Assembly (NCBI RefSeq): GCF_013122565.1
Contig: NZ_CP053258.1
Source of the DNA: Escherichia coli
GTDB taxonomy: Bacteria; Pseudomonadota; Gammaproteobacteria; Enterobacterales; Enterobacteriaceae
Strand: one strand, 5' to 3'
Length of the DNA stretch: 64,000 nt
Notes under the pieces: model-generated
The model's database searches: none
What the model saw: only the letters and a program-made list of their open reading frames with translations
Told to the model about the DNA's origin: nothing
Translations under genes and position numbers: made by a program
Shown: one piece after another, positions 1 through 54,955 of the stretch
Layout of the letters: the number at the start of each line of letters is the position of its first letter
How positions within the stretch are numbered: the stretch's first letter is position 1

Positions 1-3766
<3,766 letters not shown>

Positions 3767-4079: not shown

Positions 4080-4155
4080 TGGCTCCTCTGACTGGACTCG
4101 AACCAGTGACATACGGATTAACAGTCCGCCGTTCTACCGACTGAACTACAGAGGA
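4080..4155 (-). tRNA. asnT: tRNA-Asn (GUU)
   Basis: Reverse complement of 4080..4155 is a 76-nt tRNA-Asn sequence ending in CCA, matching the recalled E. coli tRNA-Asn. Confidence 0.93.
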
Positions 4156-5146: not shown

Positions 5147-5236
5147 GGAGAGATGCCGGAGCGGCTGAACGGACCGGTCTCGAAAACCGGAGTAGGGGCA
5201 ACTCTACCGGGGGTTCAAATCCCCCTCTCTCCGCCA
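5147..5236 (+). tRNA. serU: tRNA-Ser (CGA)
   Basis: 90-nt sequence GGAGAGATGCCGGAGCGGCTGAACGGACCGGTCTCGAAAACCGG...TCTCCGCCA read directly; long variable arm, CCA end. Confidence 0.93.
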
Positions 5237-12016: not shown

Positions 12017-12868
12017 TTAACCCGCGTAAGCTGCCAGCATTTCCTGCGCCGCCAGTTTACCCAACGCATTCGCTGCGAAAGGACTGTCGCCGGTGAGAAC
12101 TTTACGGTCCTTATGTACTCGCCCGGTGATGTCGTCATTAATAATGTTCATGCCCATTTTCTTCAGCTCTTCGCCGAAGTACCAGGTGAGATGACCCGGC
12201 ATATAGCCTATCTCTGGCGTTTGTTTGTCTGCGGCGTCTGGGAATGCGCAAATGGAATAACCATTCAGTGGGTTATCGCCGTGGCGAAGCGCCAGAAAAG
12301 CCGCCGGGCCGTGGCAAAGGGAGATAACAAAACGGTCATTTTTGATTGCCCACTGTAAAGCGGCAGCTACGTCCTGGCTTTCAGGTAAACCAATAAGTGC
12401 GCCATGACCACCAGGAACAAAGATTGCTGCATATTCGCTGTCTGCGTTGAGGCTGGCGACAACATCCGCGAGTTTCTTCGGATTGCGGAACAACGATTTA
12501 TGCTGCTCAAAGAATGGCATTACTTTTTCATCTTTGTGCGGCATAGCCCAGTATTCAAACTTGGTCATCAGACCGGAAATGGTCGCCACTTCGAATTCGA
12601 AACCTGCAGCATGGAGATGATACAACGGCAGCAACGTTTCAATCGGATGGTTACCGGTCGAGAACAGTTTTCCGTTATCGGTCGGCAAATAACGTTCGTC
12701 CGCGGCGATCACCAGAATTTTATGTTTACCGCGATACGGTTTTGGATAGTCCACGCCATCAAGATCAGAGACAGGACTGGTATATTGGCTAAGCGAATAT
12801 TCTGAAGGGAAGAATGCATTATCTTCAGCAATATCGACCTGCGGGTTTTTACTTGTTTGAACAGTCAT
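12017..12868 (-). CDS. hchA: Hsp31 glyoxalase / protein deglycase HchA
   Basis: 283-aa ORF MTVQTSKNPQVDIAEDNAFFPSEYSLSQYTSP...; DJ-1/PfpI-type catalytic Cys context (ISLCHGP). Confidence 0.9.
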   Translation of the reverse strand: MTVQTSKNPQVDIAEDNAFFPSEYSLSQYTSPVSDLDGVDYPKPYRGKHKILVIAADERYLPTDNGKLFSTGNHPIETLLPLYHLHAAGFEFEVATISGLMTKFEYWAMPHKDEKVMPFFEQHKSLFRNPKKLADVVASLNADSEYAAIFVPGGHGALIGLPESQDVAAALQWAIKNDRFVISLCHGPAAFLALRHGDNPLNGYSICAFPDAADKQTPEIGYMPGHLTWYFGEELKKMGMNIINDDITGRVHKDRKVLTGDSPFAANALGKLAAQEMLAAYAG

Positions 12869-13380
12869 AGTGTATTCCTTATTGTTGCTTAGTTAGGGTA
12901 GTCACTATATTTGCGACTGAGCTGGTCGCTATTTTTAACCAGGCTGGAAAATTGAGTCAATATATCGAAAGCGGTAGTCGGCGGGTGTAAGTATGTAATG
13001 ATGATGCTGCACTGGTGTTGAATATTATTCACGCCAAATTTTCCTTATTGAGCTACGTCGTCGCAAGTGGCCTCAATGATTTTAGACCATTATCAGAGGT
13101 ACGGGGCGGCGGGGAGAGATTTAGTGCTGTGGAATATTGTGGTGCTGATGAATATTTATATCCTGGATTGGCAGAGAAAAAGCTTATTTCATGCACTATT
13201 TTTGCAAATATTTCTATATGGGAGGCGGTTTTGTTGCAGATTAATTCATAAAGAAATGCATTTGGGTCTTGGCTTTAAGAGTAGCTGGTTGATGTTATTA
13301 TGCCAGGAGGGGCAGGGTAATGTGCCGTAACGATATGCTTTGGCAATTGCGTGCGCCGCAGATGGAAATGAAATGCCAAT

Positions 13381-13416
13381 AAAAAAGCCTGAGTTCGATG
13401 AGGGACGAACTCAGGC
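13381..13416 (-). terminator. Rho-independent terminator downstream of yedS
   Basis: Hairpin GCCTGAGTTCG...CGAACTCAGGC (13387..13416) followed on the minus strand by a U-run (A-run 13381..13386 on plus). Confidence 0.55.
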
Positions 13417-13459
13417 TAGTGTTAAGTTTTACAGTAACACGCCGCAGCGAGTTGGCTGA

Positions 13460-14647
13460 TTAGAACTGGTAGACTAAGCCCACAGCAACGATATCATCGG
13501 TAGCGATGCCGTTTTCTTTGTAGAAGTCGTCGTCGTTGTCCAGCAGGTTGATTTTGTAATCAACATAGGTGGACATGTTTTTGTTGAAGTAGTAGGTCAT
13601 ACCAATATCAACATATTTAACCAGATCTTTGTTGGTGTAGTGATGATTACCCTGGCTGTCGAAGTTATCACTATTTACACCGCCTAAATCCTTACCTTTA
13701 GATTGCAGGTAAGCGATGGACGGGCGCAGGCCGAAGTCGAACTGATACTGAGCAACAACTTCAAAGTTTTGGGTTTTGTTAGCAATGGCATCAGCATCAC
13801 CGTAACCAGTCATGTTACGGGTTTCAGCATACATAGCTGCTAAGTAAACGTTATTAGCGTCGTATTTAGCACCAACGGTCCATGCTTCTGCTGTTTCACC
13901 GCCAGCAGTTGCATCGAAGCGATCTCCATAACGGGTGTTATGAGTATCTTTGTGAACCTGGTTATCGGTACGGTCAGAGTTAGAATAAGCAGCCCCCAGA
14001 CTTAAACCGAAGTCGAAGTCATAGGAAGTGGACATACCGAAGCCGTCACCGTTCTCTTTAGCTAACTTACGTCCATTACCGTTACCAGATCCTTCCTGAC
14101 CGAACGCTCCACTACCTTCATTATTACCCTGATATTGCAGAGCAAAGTTCAGGCCATCAACCTGACCGAAGAAGCCATTGTTACGGTAGGTTGCAACACC
14201 ATTGGTACGACCGTTCATGAAGTTGTCAGCACCAGCATAGGTATCGCCACCAAATTCTGGCAGCATATCGGTCCATGCTTCTACGTCATATACGACACCG
14301 TAGTTACGACCATAGTCGAAAGTACCATTCTGGCCAAAGCCTAAACCTGCAAATGCCAGACGCGTTGCGGTATTACCTTTGTCACTTTCAGGACCGTTTG
14401 CGCCAATGTTAAATTCCCACTGACCGTAACCAGTGAATTGGTCAGCGATCTGAGTTTCACCTTTGAAACCGATACGGGCATATGACATGTCGCCATCGCT
14501 GCCAGAATCATCAGAGAAGTAGTGCAGGCCCGCTACTTTTCCGTACAAATCCAGTTTATTACCATCTTTATTATAGACTTCAGCCGCATTTGCTGCGCCA
14601 GCAACTAATAACGCCGGGACCAGCATTGCCAGAACTTTTCTTTTCAT
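13460..14647 (-). CDS. yedS: Outer membrane porin YedS (OmpC/OmpF family), apparently intact
   Basis: Uninterrupted ORF 13460..14677; start set at ATG 14647 ([21 protein letters not shown] signal peptide); C-terminal ...VGLVYQF porin signature. Confidence 0.85.
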
Positions 14648-14958
14648 TATGTATTCCCTTGTGATTATAATCTTCATGAATATATCAATAAGTGCCGTTA
14701 TCCAAAAAAAAGCACATTTGGATACTATTCTATGAAGTTCATTTTATTTTAAGAATTACATGTAACAAATGTATTTAAAAGATTTCAAAATGTTTCCAAT
14801 CTATTTAATATAATTCAGAATTATGAATTCTAAATATAAGCATTCATGAAAATTATAGCTGTATATCAATAATTTATGAGTTAACCGGAAAAATAGGTAT
14901 TGTCAATGATTGTTGCGCCAAACGGCAGGTGTGATCACGCGCACATTAATGAAGACAT

Positions 14959-15050
14959 AAAAAAAAGCCGGCATCATGCCGGCCCAAAAAATATAAACAA
15001 GACGATAAAAGGCTAATAACAGGGTTATCATGACATAGAAATCAAAAAAG
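14959..15050 (-). ncRNA. rseX: Candidate small RNA, possibly RseX
   Basis: Minus-strand terminator: GCCGGC-ATCAT-GCCGGC hairpin (14967..14983) followed by an 8-10 nt U-run. RseX is recalled to lie between yedR and yedS. The 5' end is estimated from the recalled ~91 nt length, not seen. Confidence 0.3.
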
Positions 15051-15213
15051 GTATAATTGTATTCAGTGCTAATATATTGTTTAGGTGAATTAATAAAACC
15101 ATTACCAAAGATATAAATAAATCTTTATTGCTGATTTTCCGGTAATTATTGCAGTTGCGCAAAATTTATCTATTTGTTCAAAAAATGATTGAGTCTTGAC
15201 TGGCTCATCCAAT

Positions 15214-15579
15214 GTGGAAAAATGTGACTTTTATCACATAATAGTACTAAGTCTGAATTTTCCGGGTTATCTCAAAATGGAATACGGTTCGACAAAGATG
15301 GAAGAGAGACTCTCTCGCAGCCCTGGCGGCAAATTGGCTTTGTGGGCTTTCTATACATGGTGTGGCTATTTCGTCTGGGCAATGGCGCGTTACATCTGGG
15401 TGATGAGCCGGATCCCCGATGCCCCGGTGTCGGGATTTGAAAGCGATTTAGGATCTACCGCGGGAAAGTGGTTAGGGGCACTGGTCGGATTTTTATTTAT
15501 GGCTCTGGTCGGGGCATTGTTAGGCAGCATTGCCTGGTACACCCGACCTCGTCCCGCACGTAGCAGACGCTATGAATAA
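15214..15579 (+). CDS. yedR: Inner membrane protein YedR
   Basis: ORF 15196..15579; a GTG at 15214 gives the 121 aa I recall. Alternative ATG starts at 15277 (MEYGSTK) and 15298 (MEERL) lie downstream of the CRP palindrome and may be the true start. Confidence 0.65.
   Translation: MEKCDFYHIIVLSLNFPGYLKMEYGSTKMEERLSRSPGGKLALWAFYTWCGYFVWAMARYIWVMSRIPDAPVSGFESDLGSTAGKWLGALVGFLFMALVGALLGSIAWYTRPRPARSRRYE
15223..15238. promoter_or_regulatory. CRP-type palindrome TGTGA-N6-TCACA
   Basis: TGTGACTTTTATCACA read directly; perfect match to both CRP half-sites. Confidence 0.45.
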
Positions 15580-15618
15580 AAACTGCTAAGGTTGCGACTC
15601 TTTGGCAACGGAGCGCGT

Positions 15619-16314
15619 ATGGACTTACAACACTGGCAGGCAGAGTTCGAAAACTGGTTGAAAAACCATCATCAGCACCAGGACGCGGCCCATGACGTGT
15701 GTCATTTTCGCCGCGTCTGGGCTACGGCACAGAAGCTGGCGGCAGATGATGATGTCGATATGCTGGTGATTTTAACCGCCTGTTATTTTCACGATATTGT
15801 GAGCCTGGCGAAAAATCATCCGCAGCGGCAGCGTTCTTCAATCCTGGCGGCAGAAGAGACGCGTCGCCTGCTCCGTGAAGAGTTCGTGCAATTTCCGGCG
15901 GAGAAAATTGAGGCCGTTTGTCATGCCATTGCCGCTCACAGTTTCAGCGCGCAAATCGCCCCCTTAACCACGGAAGCTAAAATTGTCCAGGATGCGGATC
16001 GGCTGGAAGCCCTGGGGGCGATTGGCCTGGTGCGCGTGTTTGCCGTTTCAGGGGCATTGGGCGTGGCGCTGTTTGATGGCGAAGATCCGTTCGCACAGTA
16101 TCGCCCGCTTGATGATAAACGCTACGCGCTGGATCATTTCCAGACTAAGTTGCTGAAGCTACCGCAAACCATGCAAACCGTAAGAGGCAAGCAGCTGGCG
16201 CAGCACAACGCGCAATTTTTAGTCGAGTTTATGGCGAAGCTCAGTGCCGAACTGGCGGGGGAGAATGAAGGTGTCGATCACAAGGTGATAGATGCGTTTT
16301 CACCCGCGGGCTGA
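15619..16314 (+). CDS. yedJ: HD-domain phosphohydrolase YedJ (231 aa)
   Basis: ORF 15592..16314 contains [22 protein letters not shown]...; start set at ATG 15619. Confidence 0.85.
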
Positions 16315-16380
16315 GCGCGTGGCCCTAAATGGCTGTAATTATGTTAACCTGTCGACCATCTCAGATGGCCGGTTAAATCT

Positions 16381-17799
16381 ATGCAGGAAAATATATCAGT
16401 AACCGATTCATACAGCACCGGGAATGCCGCACAGGCAATGCTGGAGAAACTGCTGCAAATTTATGATGTTAAAACGCTGGTGGCGCAGCTTAATGGTGTG
16501 GGTGAGAATCACTGGAGCGCGGCAATTTTAAAACGTGCACTGGCGAATGACTCGGCATGGCACCGTTTAAGTGAGAAAGAGTTCGCCCATCTGCAAACGT
16601 TATTACCCAAACCACCGGCACATCATCCGCATTATGCGTTTCGCTTTATCGATCTATTCGCCGGAATTGGCGGCATCCGTCGCGGTTTTGAATCGATTGG
16701 CGGACAGTGCGTGTTTACCAGCGAATGGAACAAACATGCGGTACGCACTTATAAAGCCAACCATTATTGCGACCCGGCGACGCATCATTTTAATGAAGAT
16801 ATCCGCGACATCACCCTCAGCCATAAAGAAGGCGTGAGTGATGAGGCGGCGGTGGAACATATTCGTCAACACATTCCTGAACACGATGTTTTACTGGCCG
16901 GTTTCCCTTGTCAGCCATTTTCGCTGGCTGGCGTATCGAAAAAGAACTCGCTCGGGCGGGCGCACGGTTTTGCCTGCGATACTCAGGGCACGTTGTTCTT
17001 TGATGTGGTGCGCATTATCGACGCGCGTCGTCCGGCGATGTTTGTGCTCGAAAACGTCAAAAACCTGAAAAGCCACGACCAGGGTAAAACGTTCCGCATC
17101 ATCATGCAGACGCTGGACGAACTGGGCTATGACGTGGCTGATGCAGAAGATAACGGGCCGGACGATCCGAAAATCATCGACGGCAAACATTTCCTGCCGC
17201 AGCACCGTGAACGCATCGTGCTGGTGGGTTTTCGTCGCGATCTGAATCTGAAAGCCGATTTTACTCTGCGTGATATCAACGGATGTTTCCCTGCGCAGCG
17301 AGTGACGCTGGCGCAGCTGTTGGACCCGATGGTCGAGGCGAAATATATCCTGACGCCGGTACTGTGGAAGTACCTCTATCGATATGCGAAAAAACATCAG
17401 GCGCGCGGTAACGGCTTCGGTTATGGAATGGTTTATCCGAACAATCCGCAAAGCGTCACCCGTACGCTGTCTGCGCGTTATTACAAAGATGGCGCGGAAA
17501 TTTTAATCGATCGCGGATGGGATATGGCCACGGGTGAAAAAGACTTTGACGATCCGCTGAATCAGCAACATCGTCCACGTCGGTTAACGCCTCGAGAATG
17601 CGCGCGCTTAATGGGTTTTGAAGCGCCGGGAGAAGCGAAATTCCGCATTCCGGTTTCGGACACTCAGGCCTATCGCCAGTTCGGTAACTCGGTGGTCGTG
17701 CCGGTCTTTGCCGCGGTGGCAAAACTGCTTGAGCCAAAAATCAAACAGGCGGTGGCGTTGCGTCAGCAAGAGGCACAACATGGTCGACGTTCACGATAA
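16381..17799 (+). CDS. dcm: DNA-cytosine methyltransferase Dcm
   Basis: 472-aa ORF with C5-MTase motifs [14 protein letters not shown] and ENV. Confidence 0.93.
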
Positions 17800-18250
17800 G
17801 GCCACCCGCAGCAAAAATATGCGCGCGATTGCCACGCGTGATACGGCGATTGAGAAGCGCCTCGCCAGTATGTTAACCGGGCAGGGCCTGGCGTTTCGCG
17901 TTCAGGACGCCAGTCTGCCCGGACGCCCGGATTTTGTCGTTGATGAATATCGCTGCGTGATATTTACCCACGGCTGCTTCTGGCACCATCATCACTGCTA
18001 TCTGTTTAAAGTGCCTGCGACTCGAACCGAGTTCTGGCTGGAGAAGATAGGTAAAAATGTTGAGCGAGATCGCCGCGATATCAGTCGCTTGCAGGAACTC
18101 GGCTGGCGCGTATTGATTGTCTGGGAGTGTGCATTACGTGGGCGCGAGAAGCTGACGGATGAAGCGCTTAGCGAGCGTCTGGAAGAGTGGATCTGCGGCG
18201 AAGGTGCCAGCGCGCAGATCGACACGCAGGGGATTCATTTACTCGCTTGA
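17780..18250 (+). CDS. vsr: Very-short-patch repair endonuclease Vsr (156 aa)
   Basis: ATG at 17780 inside the dcm 3' end, different frame; [28 protein letters not shown]... Confidence 0.9.
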
Positions 18251-19159
18251 TGCGTCCTGAATAACTGGCGCAACTACGGGTTTTGCCGGGAAGAGATATT
18301 TTCCCAACGTGACCAGTACCACCGCGAAGACAATTACGCCGAGCGCCAGCCATTCAATCTTCGACAGCGTTTCTCCGCCCAGTCCCGTACCCAGCAAGAC
18401 CGCGACCACCGGGTTAACGTAGGCGTAGCTGGTGGCGAGAGCCGGACTGACGTTGCGGATTAAATACATATAAGCGTTGATGGCGATAATCGAACCAAAC
18501 AGCGCCAGATAGCCGACCGCAAGGAAGCCTGAAAGGGAAGGGAGCGCCGTCAGTTTTTCACCCGCAATCATCGACGCGATCATTAACACCATGCCTGCCG
18601 CCAGCATCTCAATCGCACCCGCCATCATCCCTACAGGTAAGGTAATGCGCGAGCCATAAACCGAGCCAAACGCCCAGCTAATCGAGCCGATTAAAATCAG
18701 AATCGCGCCCCACGGATTGCCGCTTAAATTTCCACCGCTATTGAGCATGATGATTCCGGCAAGCCCAATGGCGATACCCACCCATTCCAGTTTGCGCGTT
18801 TTAATGCCAAACAGGCGGCTGAAGCACAGGGTAAAGAGGGGCACGGTTGCAACCACAACGGCGGCGATGCCGGAAGGAACATTTTGATGTTCGGCAACCG
18901 TCACCATGCCATTACCGACAGCCAGCAATAACAGGCCAATCAGCGCGGCATTGAGCAGCGGACGTAGCGGGGGGAGCTTGTGTCCGCGTAGTAGCAAAAA
19001 TGCCAGCAATAAAATACCGGCTGCCAGGAATCGAACGCCCGCCATCATTAACGGAGGCCAGCTTTCCACGCCAATCCGAATGACAAAATAGGTTGAGCCC
19101 CAAATGATATACAACGCAAACAGCGCGCCAAAAAGCGGTAACAACTGGCGGAAACGCAT
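18239..19159 (-). CDS. yedA: EamA/DMT-family transporter YedA
   Basis: 306-aa hydrophobic ORF MRFRQLLPLFGALFALYIIWGSTYF... Confidence 0.88.
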   Translation of the reverse strand: MRFRQLLPLFGALFALYIIWGSTYFVIRIGVESWPPLMMAGVRFLAAGILLLAFLLLRGHKLPPLRPLLNAALIGLLLLAVGNGMVTVAEHQNVPSGIAAVVVATVPLFTLCFSRLFGIKTRKLEWVGIAIGLAGIIMLNSGGNLSGNPWGAILILIGSISWAFGSVYGSRITLPVGMMAGAIEMLAAGMVLMIASMIAGEKLTALPSLSGFLAVGYLALFGSIIAINAYMYLIRNVSPALATSYAYVNPVVAVLLGTGLGGETLSKIEWLALGVIVFAVVLVTLGKYLFPAKPVVAPVIQDASSE

Positions 19160-19331
19160 AATCCCTCACGGTGGAAATAAAAAGGTGGTTCATAGTAAAC
19201 GTGAAAATCATTCTGCTGGCGAGAGATATAATTGCACTTGATTGTTAAAAAAATGTTGACCTGTGAAGCAAGTATCAGAGCTGCCGTTTTTGCTTCATAC
19301 TTACACCCTTCAACAATAAAAATGAGAGGGA

Positions 19332-20249
19332 ATGCTTTTGGCCGGGAGTAGTTTACTGACGTTGCTCGATGATATCGCCACACTGCTGGACGATATCTCC
19401 GTGATGGGCAAACTGGCGGCGAAGAAAACCGCCGGTGTATTAGGGGATGACTTATCGCTCAATGCGCAACAAGTTTCAGGCGTGCGGGCCAACCGGGAAC
19501 TTCCCGTGGTCTGGGGCGTGGCGAAAGGATCGCTGATTAATAAAGTGATTCTGGTGCCGCTGGCGCTGATCATCAGTGCGTTTATCCCGTGGGCGATTAC
19601 GCCTCTGTTGATGATTGGTGGCGCGTTTCTCTGCTTTGAAGGGGTAGAGAAAGTGCTGCATATGCTGGAGGCGCGTAAACATAAAGAAGATCCGGCGCAG
19701 AGTCAGCAGCGTCTTGAGAAGCTGGCGGCGCAGGATCCGCTGAAGTTTGAAAAGGACAAAATAAAAGGGGCGATTCGTACCGATTTTATATTGTCTGCGG
19801 AAATCGTCGCCATCACGCTGGGGATTGTGGCCGAAGCGCCGTTGCTTAATCAGGTGCTGGTGCTTTCAGGCATCGCGCTGGTAGTGACCGTAGGCGTCTA
19901 CGGTCTGGTAGGGGTTATCGTTAAGATTGATGACCTGGGGTATTGGCTGGCGGAAAAATCCAGCACGCTGATGCAGGCATTAGGTAAAGGGTTATTGATC
20001 ATTGCGCCCTGGCTGATGAAAGCGTTATCGATTGTCGGCACGCTGGCGATGTTCCTCGTCGGCGGCGGGATTGTGGTACATGGTATTGCGCCGCTGCATC
20101 ACGCCATTGAACATTTCGCCGGGCAGCAAAGTGCAGTAGTGGCGATGATATTACCGACTGTTTTAAATCTGATTCTTGGATTTATCATCGGCGGCATTGT
20201 GGTGCTGGGAGTGAAAGCCGTAGCGAAAATACGCGGTCAGGCACATTAA
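19332..20249 (+). CDS. yedI: Inner membrane protein YedI (DUF808)
   Basis: 305-aa [36 protein letters not shown]... Confidence 0.88.
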
Positions 20250-20327
20250 TACTCGCACAGGCTATTATGCAAAATTCGCCATCTTCAACTAAGGTGAACA
20301 AGTTTCACTCGAAAAAAGGAGGCGAGT

Positions 20328-20510
20328 ATGAGCTTTATGGTTAGTGAGGAAGTTACGGTTAAAGAGGGCGGCCCGCGGATGATTGTCACTGGATACTCCA
20401 GCGGTATGGTTGAGTGTCGTTGGTATGACGGTTACGGGGTCAAGCGGGAAGCTTTTCATGAAACCGAGCTTGTTCCGGGGGAGGGGAGTCGTTCTGCGGA
20501 AGAAGTTTGA
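20328..20510 (+). CDS. yodC: Small protein YodC (60 aa)
   Basis: ORF with GGAGG RBS about 8 nt upstream of ATG; MSFMVSEEVTVKEGGPRMIVTGYSSGMVECRWYDGYG... Confidence 0.8.
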   Translation: MSFMVSEEVTVKEGGPRMIVTGYSSGMVECRWYDGYGVKREAFHETELVPGEGSRSAEEV

Positions 20511-20526
20511 AAGGGTATCATAAACA

Positions 20527-20715
20527 CCCGACCGGATGTGGTGCTCACGTCGCATCCGGTCGGGTGTGCCAGTGTTTGCACTGAATTGCCTGATGCGACG
20601 CTATCGCGTCTTATCATGCCTACGTTATAAAACTATCGAAGTCTGTCGCGTCTTATCATGCCACCATTATAAAATTATCGCTGTTTTGCGGTACGCTATC
20701 GCCAGGTTATGCCAG
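20527..20715. repeat. REP/BIME-like palindromic repeat cluster
   Basis: CCCGACCGGATG...CATCCGGTCGGG palindrome, then two degenerate copies of GCCTGATGCGACGC...CGCGTCTTATCATGCC; extragenic, between yodC and dgcQ. Confidence 0.5.
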
Positions 20716-20747
20716 AATCATAAAAAAGCAGGTGGGGAGTCGTCAGG

Positions 20748-23272
<2,525 letters not shown>

Positions 23273-23451
23273 TTACCAGGATGATTCTCAAAACAGCACA
23301 AATTATCAAAGATGATTTTTTCGGGAGCGATCCCGCTGACGCCAGAGCCACCAAGGGGTGACGTGCGTCACATTTCTATTCATAAGTAGCGTTAATCATT
23401 CATATAGCGAATATTTTCTTGTCAGCGAAAAAAATTGCGGATAAGGTGATG

Positions 23452-23538
23452 AACACATCAGATTTCCTGGTGTAACGAATTTTTTAAGTGCTTCTTGCTT
23501 AAGCAAGTTTCATCCCGACCTCCTCAGGGTCGGGATTT
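23452..23538 (+). ncRNA. dsrA: DsrA small regulatory RNA
   Basis: 87-nt AACACATCAGATTTCCTGGTGTAACGAATTTTTTAAGTGCTTCTTGCTTAAGCAAGTTTCATCCCGACC(T)CCTCAGGGTCGGGATTT, with terminal hairpin and U-run. Confidence 0.9.
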
Positions 23539-54653: not shown

Positions 54654-54729
<76 letters not shown>

Positions 54730-54782
54730 GTTTAAAAGACATCGGCGTCAGCGGATGTCTGGCTGAAAGGCCTGAAGAATTT

Positions 54783-54856
54783 GGCGCGTTAACAAAGCGG
54801 TTATGTAGCGGATTGCAAATCCGTCTAGTCCGGTTCGACTCCGGAACGCGCCTCCA
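54783..54856 (+). tRNA. cysT: tRNA-Cys (GCA)
   Basis: 74-nt GGCGCGTTAACAAAGCGGTTATGTAGCGGATTGCAAATCCGTCTAGTCCGGTTCGACTCCGGAACGCGCCTCCA. Confidence 0.93.
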
Positions 54857-54868
54857 CTTTCTTCCCGA

Positions 54869-54955
54869 GCCCGGATGGTGGAATCGGTAGACACAAGGGA
54901 TTTAAAATCCCTCGGCGTTCGCGCTGTGCGGGTTCAAGTCCCGCTCCGGGTACCA
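54869..54955 (+). tRNA. leuZ: tRNA-Leu (UAA)
   Basis: 87-nt GCCCGGATGGTGGAATCGGTAGACACAAGGGATTTAAAATCCCTCGGCGTTCGCGCTGTGCGGGTTCAAGTCCCGCTCCGGGTACCA. Confidence 0.93.

Follow-up and report, generated by a model that had tools for sequence, protein, structure and literature searches.

The DNA-cytosine methyltransferase Dcm makes 5-methylcytosine, whose deamination to T gives rise to mutation hot spots, and the resulting T:G mismatches are repaired by Vsr. The arrangement of the two genes in Escherichia coli K-12 was reportedly established between 1990 and 1993 by Sohail et al. (1990) and by Dar and Bhagwat (1993), the latter of whom are said to have found that dcm and vsr share a promoter, that Vsr is no fusion protein and that efficient translation of vsr requires translation of dcm. 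PMC12907096 (citing Sohail 1990) places the two genes in the same operon, and full-length transcripts of K-12 join yedR, yedJ, dcm and vsr (bioRxiv 10.1101/262964). In RefSeq, vsr of K-12 MG1655 (2030448..2030918) overlaps dcm (2030899..2032317) by 20 bp. Interlocking the antidote gene with the mutagenic gene ensures their joint inheritance and transcription, and the overlap may also tie Vsr synthesis to translation of dcm, at a level low enough to avoid the mutator effect of Vsr.

In this study, we analyzed a 64,000-nucleotide stretch of E. coli DNA (assembly GCF_013122565.1, contig NZ_CP053258.1), hereafter the window, whose dcm-vsr features are listed in Table 1. A preliminary description, made from the sequence alone, had named the two genes, placed an out-of-frame overlap of 20 bp at 17780-17799 and called this arrangement already well described. 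The names were borne out by family models (NF007772, TIGR00632 and Pfam); the coordinates, length and frame relation of the overlap proved exact when the sequence was read against codon tables; and the K-12 MG1655 annotation has the same geometry. The locus of strain 14EC033 in RefSeq also has it (locus coordinates: dcm, 1582..3000; vsr, 2981..3451; overlap, 20 bp), and in a three-way alignment the junctions of the window, K-12 and 14EC033 were 99% identical and showed the same overlap. A 2-kb query spanning dcm-vsr matched 5367 of 5426 complete E. coli genomes, in which dcm, vsr, yedA and yedJ are annotated. The overlap described here is the canonical enterobacterial junction, which is already known, annotated and published for E. 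coli K-12, and is ordinary. The window supplies another instance of it, with a common allele, and our comparative data (frame-specific constraint, a conserved Shine-Dalgarno (SD) sequence in a Dcm tail that drifts, and other geometries, among them loci where dcm was lost and vsr kept) give it context and are no discovery.

Table 1. Features of the dcm-vsr junction and its upstream neighbours in the window
Feature	Position	Strand	Basis or remark
dcm, DNA-cytosine methyltransferase, 472 aa	16381..17799	+	ORF; NF007772, TIGR00675, PF00145, PF18284
vsr, very-short-patch repair T:G mismatch endonuclease, 156 aa	17780..18250	+	TIGR00632, PF03852, 1cw0
dcm/vsr overlap, 20 bp	17780..17799	+	sequence reading and codon tables; homologous coordinates in K-12
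vsr Shine-Dalgarno-like AAGAGG	17768..17773	+	within dcm codons Gln463-Glu464-Ala465
T/C site compared with K-12, in the overlap	17784..17784	+	junction alignment, codon tables
vsr Met14 codon, ATG	17819..17821	+	rejected alternative start
CAG, Dcm Gln462	17764..17766	+	aligns with the TAA dcm stop of non-overlapping species
drpB (yedR, end 15579) and yedJ (15619..16314)	15277..16314	+	ORFs; upstream operon members

The ORF listing and direct reading agreed on TAA at 17797..17799 as the dcm stop and on 18248..18250 as the last codon of vsr. The genes are co-directional on the same strand, and the vsr ATG (17780..17782) opens a frame of 156 codons that is +1 relative to dcm (16381 mod 3 = 1; 17780 mod 3 = 2). 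In terms of vsr, the 20 nt of overlap are six codons plus 2 nt, and in terms of dcm they are 2 nt of His467 followed by five codons and the stop. Over the junction, the dcm frame reads CAT GGT CGA CGT TCA CGA TAA (H G R R S R stop, codons 467-472) and the vsr frame reads ATG GTC GAC GTT CAC GAT AAG (M V D V H D K).

The Dcm translation matched NF007772 (“DNA cytosine methylase”) over residues 1-469 of 472 with 949.1 bits against a cutoff of 710, TIGR00675 with 348.7 bits, and the Pfam families PF00145 (259 bits) and PF18284. This full-length, above-cutoff match, together with the catalytic GFPCQPFS (PC motif) and FVLENVKN (ENV motif) in the translation, places the protein in the Dcm family. 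Identity to the dcm genes that RefSeq annotates in 14EC033 and K-12 is 99%, and from the identity to the K-12 enzyme we infer that its product would methylate the inner C of CCWGG. Vsr matched TIGR00632 (“DNA mismatch endonuclease Vsr”; 181.7 bits, cutoff 97.85) with residues 1-118 on model positions 1-119, and PF03852 (133.3 bits, cutoff 27). The PDB chain 1cw0 matched Vsr residues 3-156 (E = 2.5e-105) with two substitutions, Leu to Met at 31 and Thr to Ser at 130. Taking Asp51, His64 and His69 as the catalytic residues and Cys66, His71, Cys73 and Cys117 as the zinc residues of E. coli Vsr (1vsr/1cw0), we found the corresponding stretches, including WECAL, identical to those of 1cw0. Differences from K-12 and 1cw0 were confined to residues 2, 31 and 130, of which residue 2 lies outside the HMM alignment, and with about 98% identity to the K-12 enzyme the protein is predicted to nick 5' of the T in T:G mismatches within CTWGG. 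Flanking ORFs were assigned to yedJ (NF007515, 455 bits) and to a convergent yedA (NF008432).

The locus therefore shares with K-12 dcm-vsr (b1961-b1960) the genes, the drpB-yedJ-dcm-vsr synteny, the convergent yedA, the 20-bp overlap in the +1 frame and the SD; one base within the overlap differs, the rest of the junction being identical, and Vsr differs also at residues 31 and 130. That base, T at 17784 where K-12 has C, leaves Gly468 of Dcm unchanged (GGC to GGT) and replaces Ala2 of Vsr by Val (GCC to GTC). It was followed with a 55-nt megablast query centred on 17784, with which C-allele genomes share at most 27 exact bases per side, below the word size of 28 bases. Of 5426 complete E. 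coli genomes, the query matched 1630 (1524 of them at 99% identity or above), including the type strain ATCC 11775, and the idea that the C-to-T change (A2V) is unusual was dropped, since the allele is common. Compared with the best complete E. coli genome, divergence is about 1.1% for the 2-kb dcm-vsr region and about 1.1-1.3% for the window as a whole, and the flanks show 98.8% and 96.9% identity. That the divergence of about 1% from all complete E. coli genomes is specific to dcm-vsr was rejected as well; because the flanks are equally or more diverged, the divergence reflects the source lineage.

A Vsr-protein search of genome contigs gave 80 loci, all from Enterobacteriaceae, with Vsr 72-97% identical. 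In 58 of these, dcm and vsr overlap, and all overlap lengths are 3n+2, which keeps the +1 frame. The length is 20 bp in 48 loci, as in the window (Escherichia, Citrobacter, Salmonella, Enterobacter, Lelliottia, Trabulsiella and others), and differs in 10 loci (14 bp in two, 17 bp in four, 23 bp in two, 26 bp in one and 35 bp in one), a few lengths hinging on which tandem start codon is chosen. Since the geometry recurs at 48 loci with exactly 20 bp and at 10 with 14-35 bp, always as 3n+2, it reflects more than chance. Changes synonymous in vsr are enough to alter the overlap: with CAT in place of CAC, a TAA arises earlier and the overlap is 17 bp, and with GAC in place of GAT, the usual TAA is lost and it is 35 bp. 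Among the remaining loci, a gap of 10-35 nt separates the genes in six (10-12 nt with GGAG-type SDs in five, from Cedecea, Dryocola and two “Enterobacter sp.”; 35 nt in one Buttiauxella), an insert of about 0.9-1 kb lies between them in five, all Buttiauxella, and a 67-codon remnant of dcm in Klebsiella indica retains the same terminal overlap. No dcm homolog was found upstream of vsr in 10 loci, one of which (L066) has too little upstream sequence to judge; at seven dcm-less loci, yedJ lies about 27-40 nt before vsr (Kosakonia, Phytobacter). The insert of one Buttiauxella locus (L038) carries a 172-aa ORF on the opposite strand.

Selection on the shared bases was read from 49 sequences with the 20-bp overlap. 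Nucleotide variation at the vsr N-terminus is found at third positions of vsr codons, where dcm has its first positions, and Vsr residues 3-5 and 7-17 are invariant, indicating that this stretch is translated in the vsr frame. Over the last 11 residues of Dcm, entropy reaches 2.5 bits with 2-10 residues per column, and the overlapping Vsr residues are fixed. By this comparison, selection within the overlap is shown to follow the vsr frame, the last 11 or so Dcm residues drifting. The exception in the Dcm tail is a Glu at position −9, conserved at 96%, whose GAG codon occupies nt −9 to −7 from the vsr ATG (100, 96 and 84% conserved) and is the SD core; this conserved element is best read as an RNA signal for vsr rather than as a Dcm residue.

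When the geometric classes were aligned, the CGC TAA of gap-type loci fell opposite CGT CAG of the overlap type (Gln462), the gap-type spacer being 1-3 nt shorter. Gln462 also marks the point beyond which conservation of the Dcm tail is poor. Most simply, the two forms would be related by conversion between stop and sense (TAA/CAG) with a change of 1-3 nt in the spacer, in either direction. We advance only tentatively, as somewhat improbable, the further idea that the 20-bp overlap is a relic of the loss of the dcm stop in the ancestor of Escherichia, Salmonella, Citrobacter, Enterobacter and Raoultella and no device for coupling, and that the −20 geometry mainly keeps Vsr low. In such a history, the ancestral TAA would have become a sense codon and the spacer would have shifted by 1-3 nt, so that the dcm frame would continue across the former SD and spacer of vsr as far as vsr codons 1-6. 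Dcm would have gained an unconstrained tail of about 11 residues, and Vsr would be kept low through weak coupling or occlusion.

The vsr start itself is marked by several independent features. The SD AAGAGG lies 6 nt upstream of the ATG and forms a duplex with the 3' end of 16S rRNA of −5.8 kcal/mol, a value matched or bettered at 6.4% of random window positions, and the family model TIGR00632 aligns from residue 1. Across the 80 species loci the start codon, ATG or in five loci GTG, is kept at the homologous position or at an in-frame codon next to it. The vsr frame is closed by a stop no more than 5 codons before the homologous ATG in 17 loci, a TAG immediately preceding this ATG in Salmonella, and species in which the genes do not overlap or dcm is absent have the same ATG behind a strong SD. 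In the window, the vsr frame is open back to 17612, 56 codons upstream; an N-terminal extension from TTG at 17618 (a 210-aa ORF) was rejected as an open-frame artefact, as the frame is closed in those 17 loci and the model starts at the ATG. As judged from these comparisons, the vsr start at the ATG at 17780 is sound. Having a start codon and a conserved SD of its own, Vsr is a separate polypeptide initiated within the dcm message and no frameshift fusion.

Regarding transcription, a scan of 16200..18400 for sigma-70 consensus sites gave 0 sites with 1.8 expected, the scan being blind to weak or alternative-sigma promoters; an internal vsr promoter within dcm was set aside on this weak test. 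For coupling of translation, hints come from genetics and from SD strength. According to PMC4444293, Vsr activity is lost as well in the dcm-6 nonsense mutant (codon 45), which fits translational coupling and could equally result from transcriptional (Rho-dependent) polarity. The mean SD energy was −5.6 kcal/mol in overlapping loci, −8.15 in dcm-absent loci and −8.5 in gap loci (one-sided Mann-Whitney U test, p = 7e-4, uncorrected for phylogeny), and the weaker SDs of overlapping loci are consistent with some reliance on dcm translation.

Folding of the RNA pointed the other way. The junction folded no better than its shuffles (z = −0.36), and an alignment fold of 21 species had no conserved pairs over the vsr SD or ATG and 0 compensatory changes. 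A hairpin masking the vsr ribosome-binding site was accordingly rejected, although the single-sequence minimum free energy structure pairs 17751..17806. With no masking structure by shuffles or alignment, coupling through RNA unfolding is unsupported. A 2025 review (PMC12548453) reports that coupling declines as the overlap grows from −4 to −25 nt and is none at −25, and termination-reinitiation requires very short distances (PMC10666635). The first base of the dcm stop follows the vsr start by 17 nt, within the range termed “spatially coupled” but at its weak-coupling end (PMC12548453). A full-text literature search combining vsr, dcm and ‘translational coupling’ returned no match. The preliminary description had also stated that the overlap couples Vsr translation to Dcm. 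This claim stands in part, through the weaker SDs at overlaps and the loss of Vsr with dcm-6, and is undercut by the lack of a masking structure, by the conservation of the SD core and by the weak coupling expected at −20 nt; the coupling of vsr to dcm translation, as partly supported here, would be partial or weak at most.

Taken together, we consider it probable that the canonical junction works by separate initiation of vsr at 17780 on a shared mRNA, with partial help from ribosomes that translate dcm. Transcription of dcm and vsr would proceed together with drpB and yedJ, and vsr would be initiated from its modest, conserved SD. Ribosomes translating the end of dcm would contribute to this initiation, and Vsr would be made only where the dcm message is translated. 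Since termination takes place 17-20 nt beyond the AUG, the coupling is expected to be weak and partial, and it would give a low output of Vsr. Overexpression of Vsr is mutagenic (PMC2715241), and a low level would for that reason be desirable.

Two alternatives to initiation at 17780 fare poorly against the start-site evidence. If the true start of vsr were Met14, past the dcm stop, there would be no functional overlap; this is the only in-frame ATG after that stop, 20 nt beyond it, and a downstream start of this kind is what the preliminary description had held could overturn its reading. The start in the overlap withstands it. No SD-like sequence precedes 17819, and starting there would cost 13 conserved residues, which the Vsr family model covers. 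In the 49 sequences, residues 3-13 hardly change and variation is limited to synonymous positions, so they are translated, and Met14 is invariant as an internal residue in all 49. The protein lacking this stretch, Vsr-delta14, is impaired (PMC2715241), and we regard a start at Met14 as extremely improbable. Equally remote, and effectively refuted, is the idea that ribosomes shifting by +1 within the overlap produce a Dcm-Vsr fusion, and that this fusion is the source of Vsr activity. Such a fusion would be allowed by the +1 register and by the 56 open codons upstream in the window. Against it, conservation extends to both the start codon (ATG or GTG) and the SD, the frame is closed upstream in the 17 loci with in-frame stops, including the TAG abutting the ATG in Salmonella, gap-type and dcm-less species have the same Vsr from the same ATG, and the complete structure and activity of the endonuclease reside in a 155-residue protein (1cw0). 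Dar and Bhagwat are also said to have excluded a Dcm-Vsr fusion in 1993.

The other two alternatives accept separate initiation and differ on what the overlap does. The overlap may have no regulatory role, vsr being initiated independently and the geometry being a neutral by-product of a lost dcm stop, with the next stop found in vsr codons 6-7. Much of the comparative evidence is compatible with this: the Dcm tail is unconstrained where the SD core is conserved, overlap length shifts freely by vsr-synonymous changes (17 bp, 35 bp), the gap-type TAA aligns with a sense codon of the overlap type, and relatives function with a 10-12-nt gap, with an insert of about 1 kb or without dcm. The vsr start is masked by no RNA structure, and synthetic data show little coupling near −25 nt (PMC12548453). 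However, SDs are significantly weaker in overlapping loci, as if initiation were assisted otherwise, and exactly 20 bp is found in 48 of the 58 overlapping loci although other lengths are easily reached. Methyltransferase-vsr overlaps also recur in unrelated operons, and the dcm-6 nonsense allele is reported to abolish Vsr activity (PMC4444293), so that a purely neutral overlap appears rather unlikely to us. Less likely still, and by a good distance from probable, is a role as a throttle, in which ribosomes finishing dcm would cover the vsr SD and AUG, keeping Vsr low under heavy dcm translation and letting it rise as dcm is translated less, such as in stationary phase. From the vsr SD and AUG to the dcm stop, the distance is indeed about one ribosome footprint or less, excess Vsr is mutagenic (PMC2715241) and deep overlaps couple poorly (PMC12548453); citing papers, including PMC2715241, tie stationary phase to greater VSP repair activity and possibly to higher Vsr. 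On the other hand, a weak SD by itself would also hold Vsr low, and the early nonsense allele dcm-6 loses rather than gains Vsr activity (PMC4444293), although polarity could mask an effect. Separate initiation with partial help from dcm-translating ribosomes is the reading we prefer over both.

Finally, the junction can be set beside other known arrangements. Like pairs coupled through short overlaps (ATGA, −4 nt; TGATG/TAATG, −1 nt; PMC6728339, PMC10666635, PMC12548453), dcm and vsr are co-directional, have a start near a stop and encode linked products; in contrast to those pairs, the overlap is 20 nt instead of 1-4, a terminating ribosome would need to back up 17-20 nt, a range over which coupling decays in synthetic series (PMC12548453), and the products are no subunits of a complex. 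Enterobacterial gap-type dcm-vsr loci (Cedecea, Dryocola, Enterobacter sp. Ag1 and Cy-643) have the same synteny, Vsr N-terminus and ATG as the window, whereas their dcm TAA aligns at Gln462, their strong GGAG SD lies in a true intergenic spacer and their Dcm is without the tail of about 11 residues. The dcm-vsr-R restriction-modification operons on alphaproteobacterial plasmids (Acidiphilium NZ_CP041721, Agrobacterium NZ_CP110833) resemble the window in that a C5-methylase gene is followed by an out-of-frame vsr; their overlap, also 3n+2, is 8 bp and shorter than the 20 bp of the window, their vsr is about 45% identical, and a restriction endonuclease gene comes next, whereas the chromosomal dcm of the window is solitary.

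At seven vsr loci of Kosakonia, Phytobacter and their relatives (L031, L033, L037, L042, L054, L059 and L064; ~2960..3001 of each locus), no dcm was found between yedJ and vsr, and only ~27–40 nt lie between the end of yedJ homology and the vsr ATG, which is preceded by a strong Shine-Dalgarno sequence, GGGGGAG/GAGGG. The vsr of these loci is an 'orphan' kept at the same locus with its adjacent methylase missing, a statement that refers to this locus only. In Klebsiella indica (L029, 2800..3020), dcm was reduced to an open remnant of 67 codons, which is homologous to Dcm residues 297–347, continues into a tail ending ...HHGGRSR* and at its 3' end keeps the same 20-bp overlap (GATAA) with vsr. 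The vsr gene of this locus is intact, and its dcm looks like a pseudogene with an internal deletion. In five Buttiauxella loci (L038, L041, L047, L058 and L078), an insert of ~0.9–1 kb separates the stop codon of dcm from the ATG of vsr; in L038 this insert bears an ORF on the opposite strand. For L085, a locus on the Pseudomonas ficuserectae plasmid pZJDX1, the Vsr match at 1801..2243 was obtained in two pieces, and the PLSDB gene table, which is incomplete, lists dcm and a type II restriction endonuclease without any vsr gene between them; this pattern may represent a vsr pseudogene in a restriction-modification operon, or else an effect of the incomplete table.

In the window, the vsr stop codon (18248..18250, + strand) falls inside the yedA ORF (18239..19159, − strand). 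Since this convergent 3' overlap adds to that with dcm at the 5' side, vsr is overlapped at both ends, and no space is left there for an intergenic terminator.

The best identity to 5426 complete E. coli genomes, sampled at 12300..23500, was only ~98.7–98.9%, so the window appears to come from an Escherichia lineage with no close representative among these genomes. The 4-kb porin region was the most diverged of the parts examined (best identity 96.9%), and it matched 2–4 places per genome, which indicates paralogs.

Coordinates of features in the window and in the Buttiauxella locus L038
Feature	Position	Strand	Remarks
vsr/yedA convergent 3'-end overlap	18239..18250	vsr +, yedA −	12 bp; ORF coordinates
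Porin-locus ORF	13460..14677	−	intact, 405 aa; between hchA and drpB; 'porin OmpC' annotation in related genomes
sRNA rseX	14960..15049	−	Rfam, 94.1 bits
sRNA DsrA	23452..23538	+	Rfam, 100.2 bits
tRNA-Asn(GTT)	4080..4155	−	
tRNA-Ser(CGA)	5147..5236	+	
tRNA-Gly(GCC)/Cys(GCA)/Leu(TAA) cluster	54654..54955	+	
L038 insert ORF	2185..2703 (locus)	opposite	172 aa; N-terminus signal-peptide-like

The K-12 counterpart of the porin-locus ORF, yedS, is a pseudogene, and the tRNAs fit asnT, serU and glyW-cysT-leuZ on the K-12 map. Both rseX and DsrA are placed as K-12 synteny predicts, and K-12 has the same convergent 12-bp overlap of vsr (2030448..2030918) and yedA (2029539..2030459).
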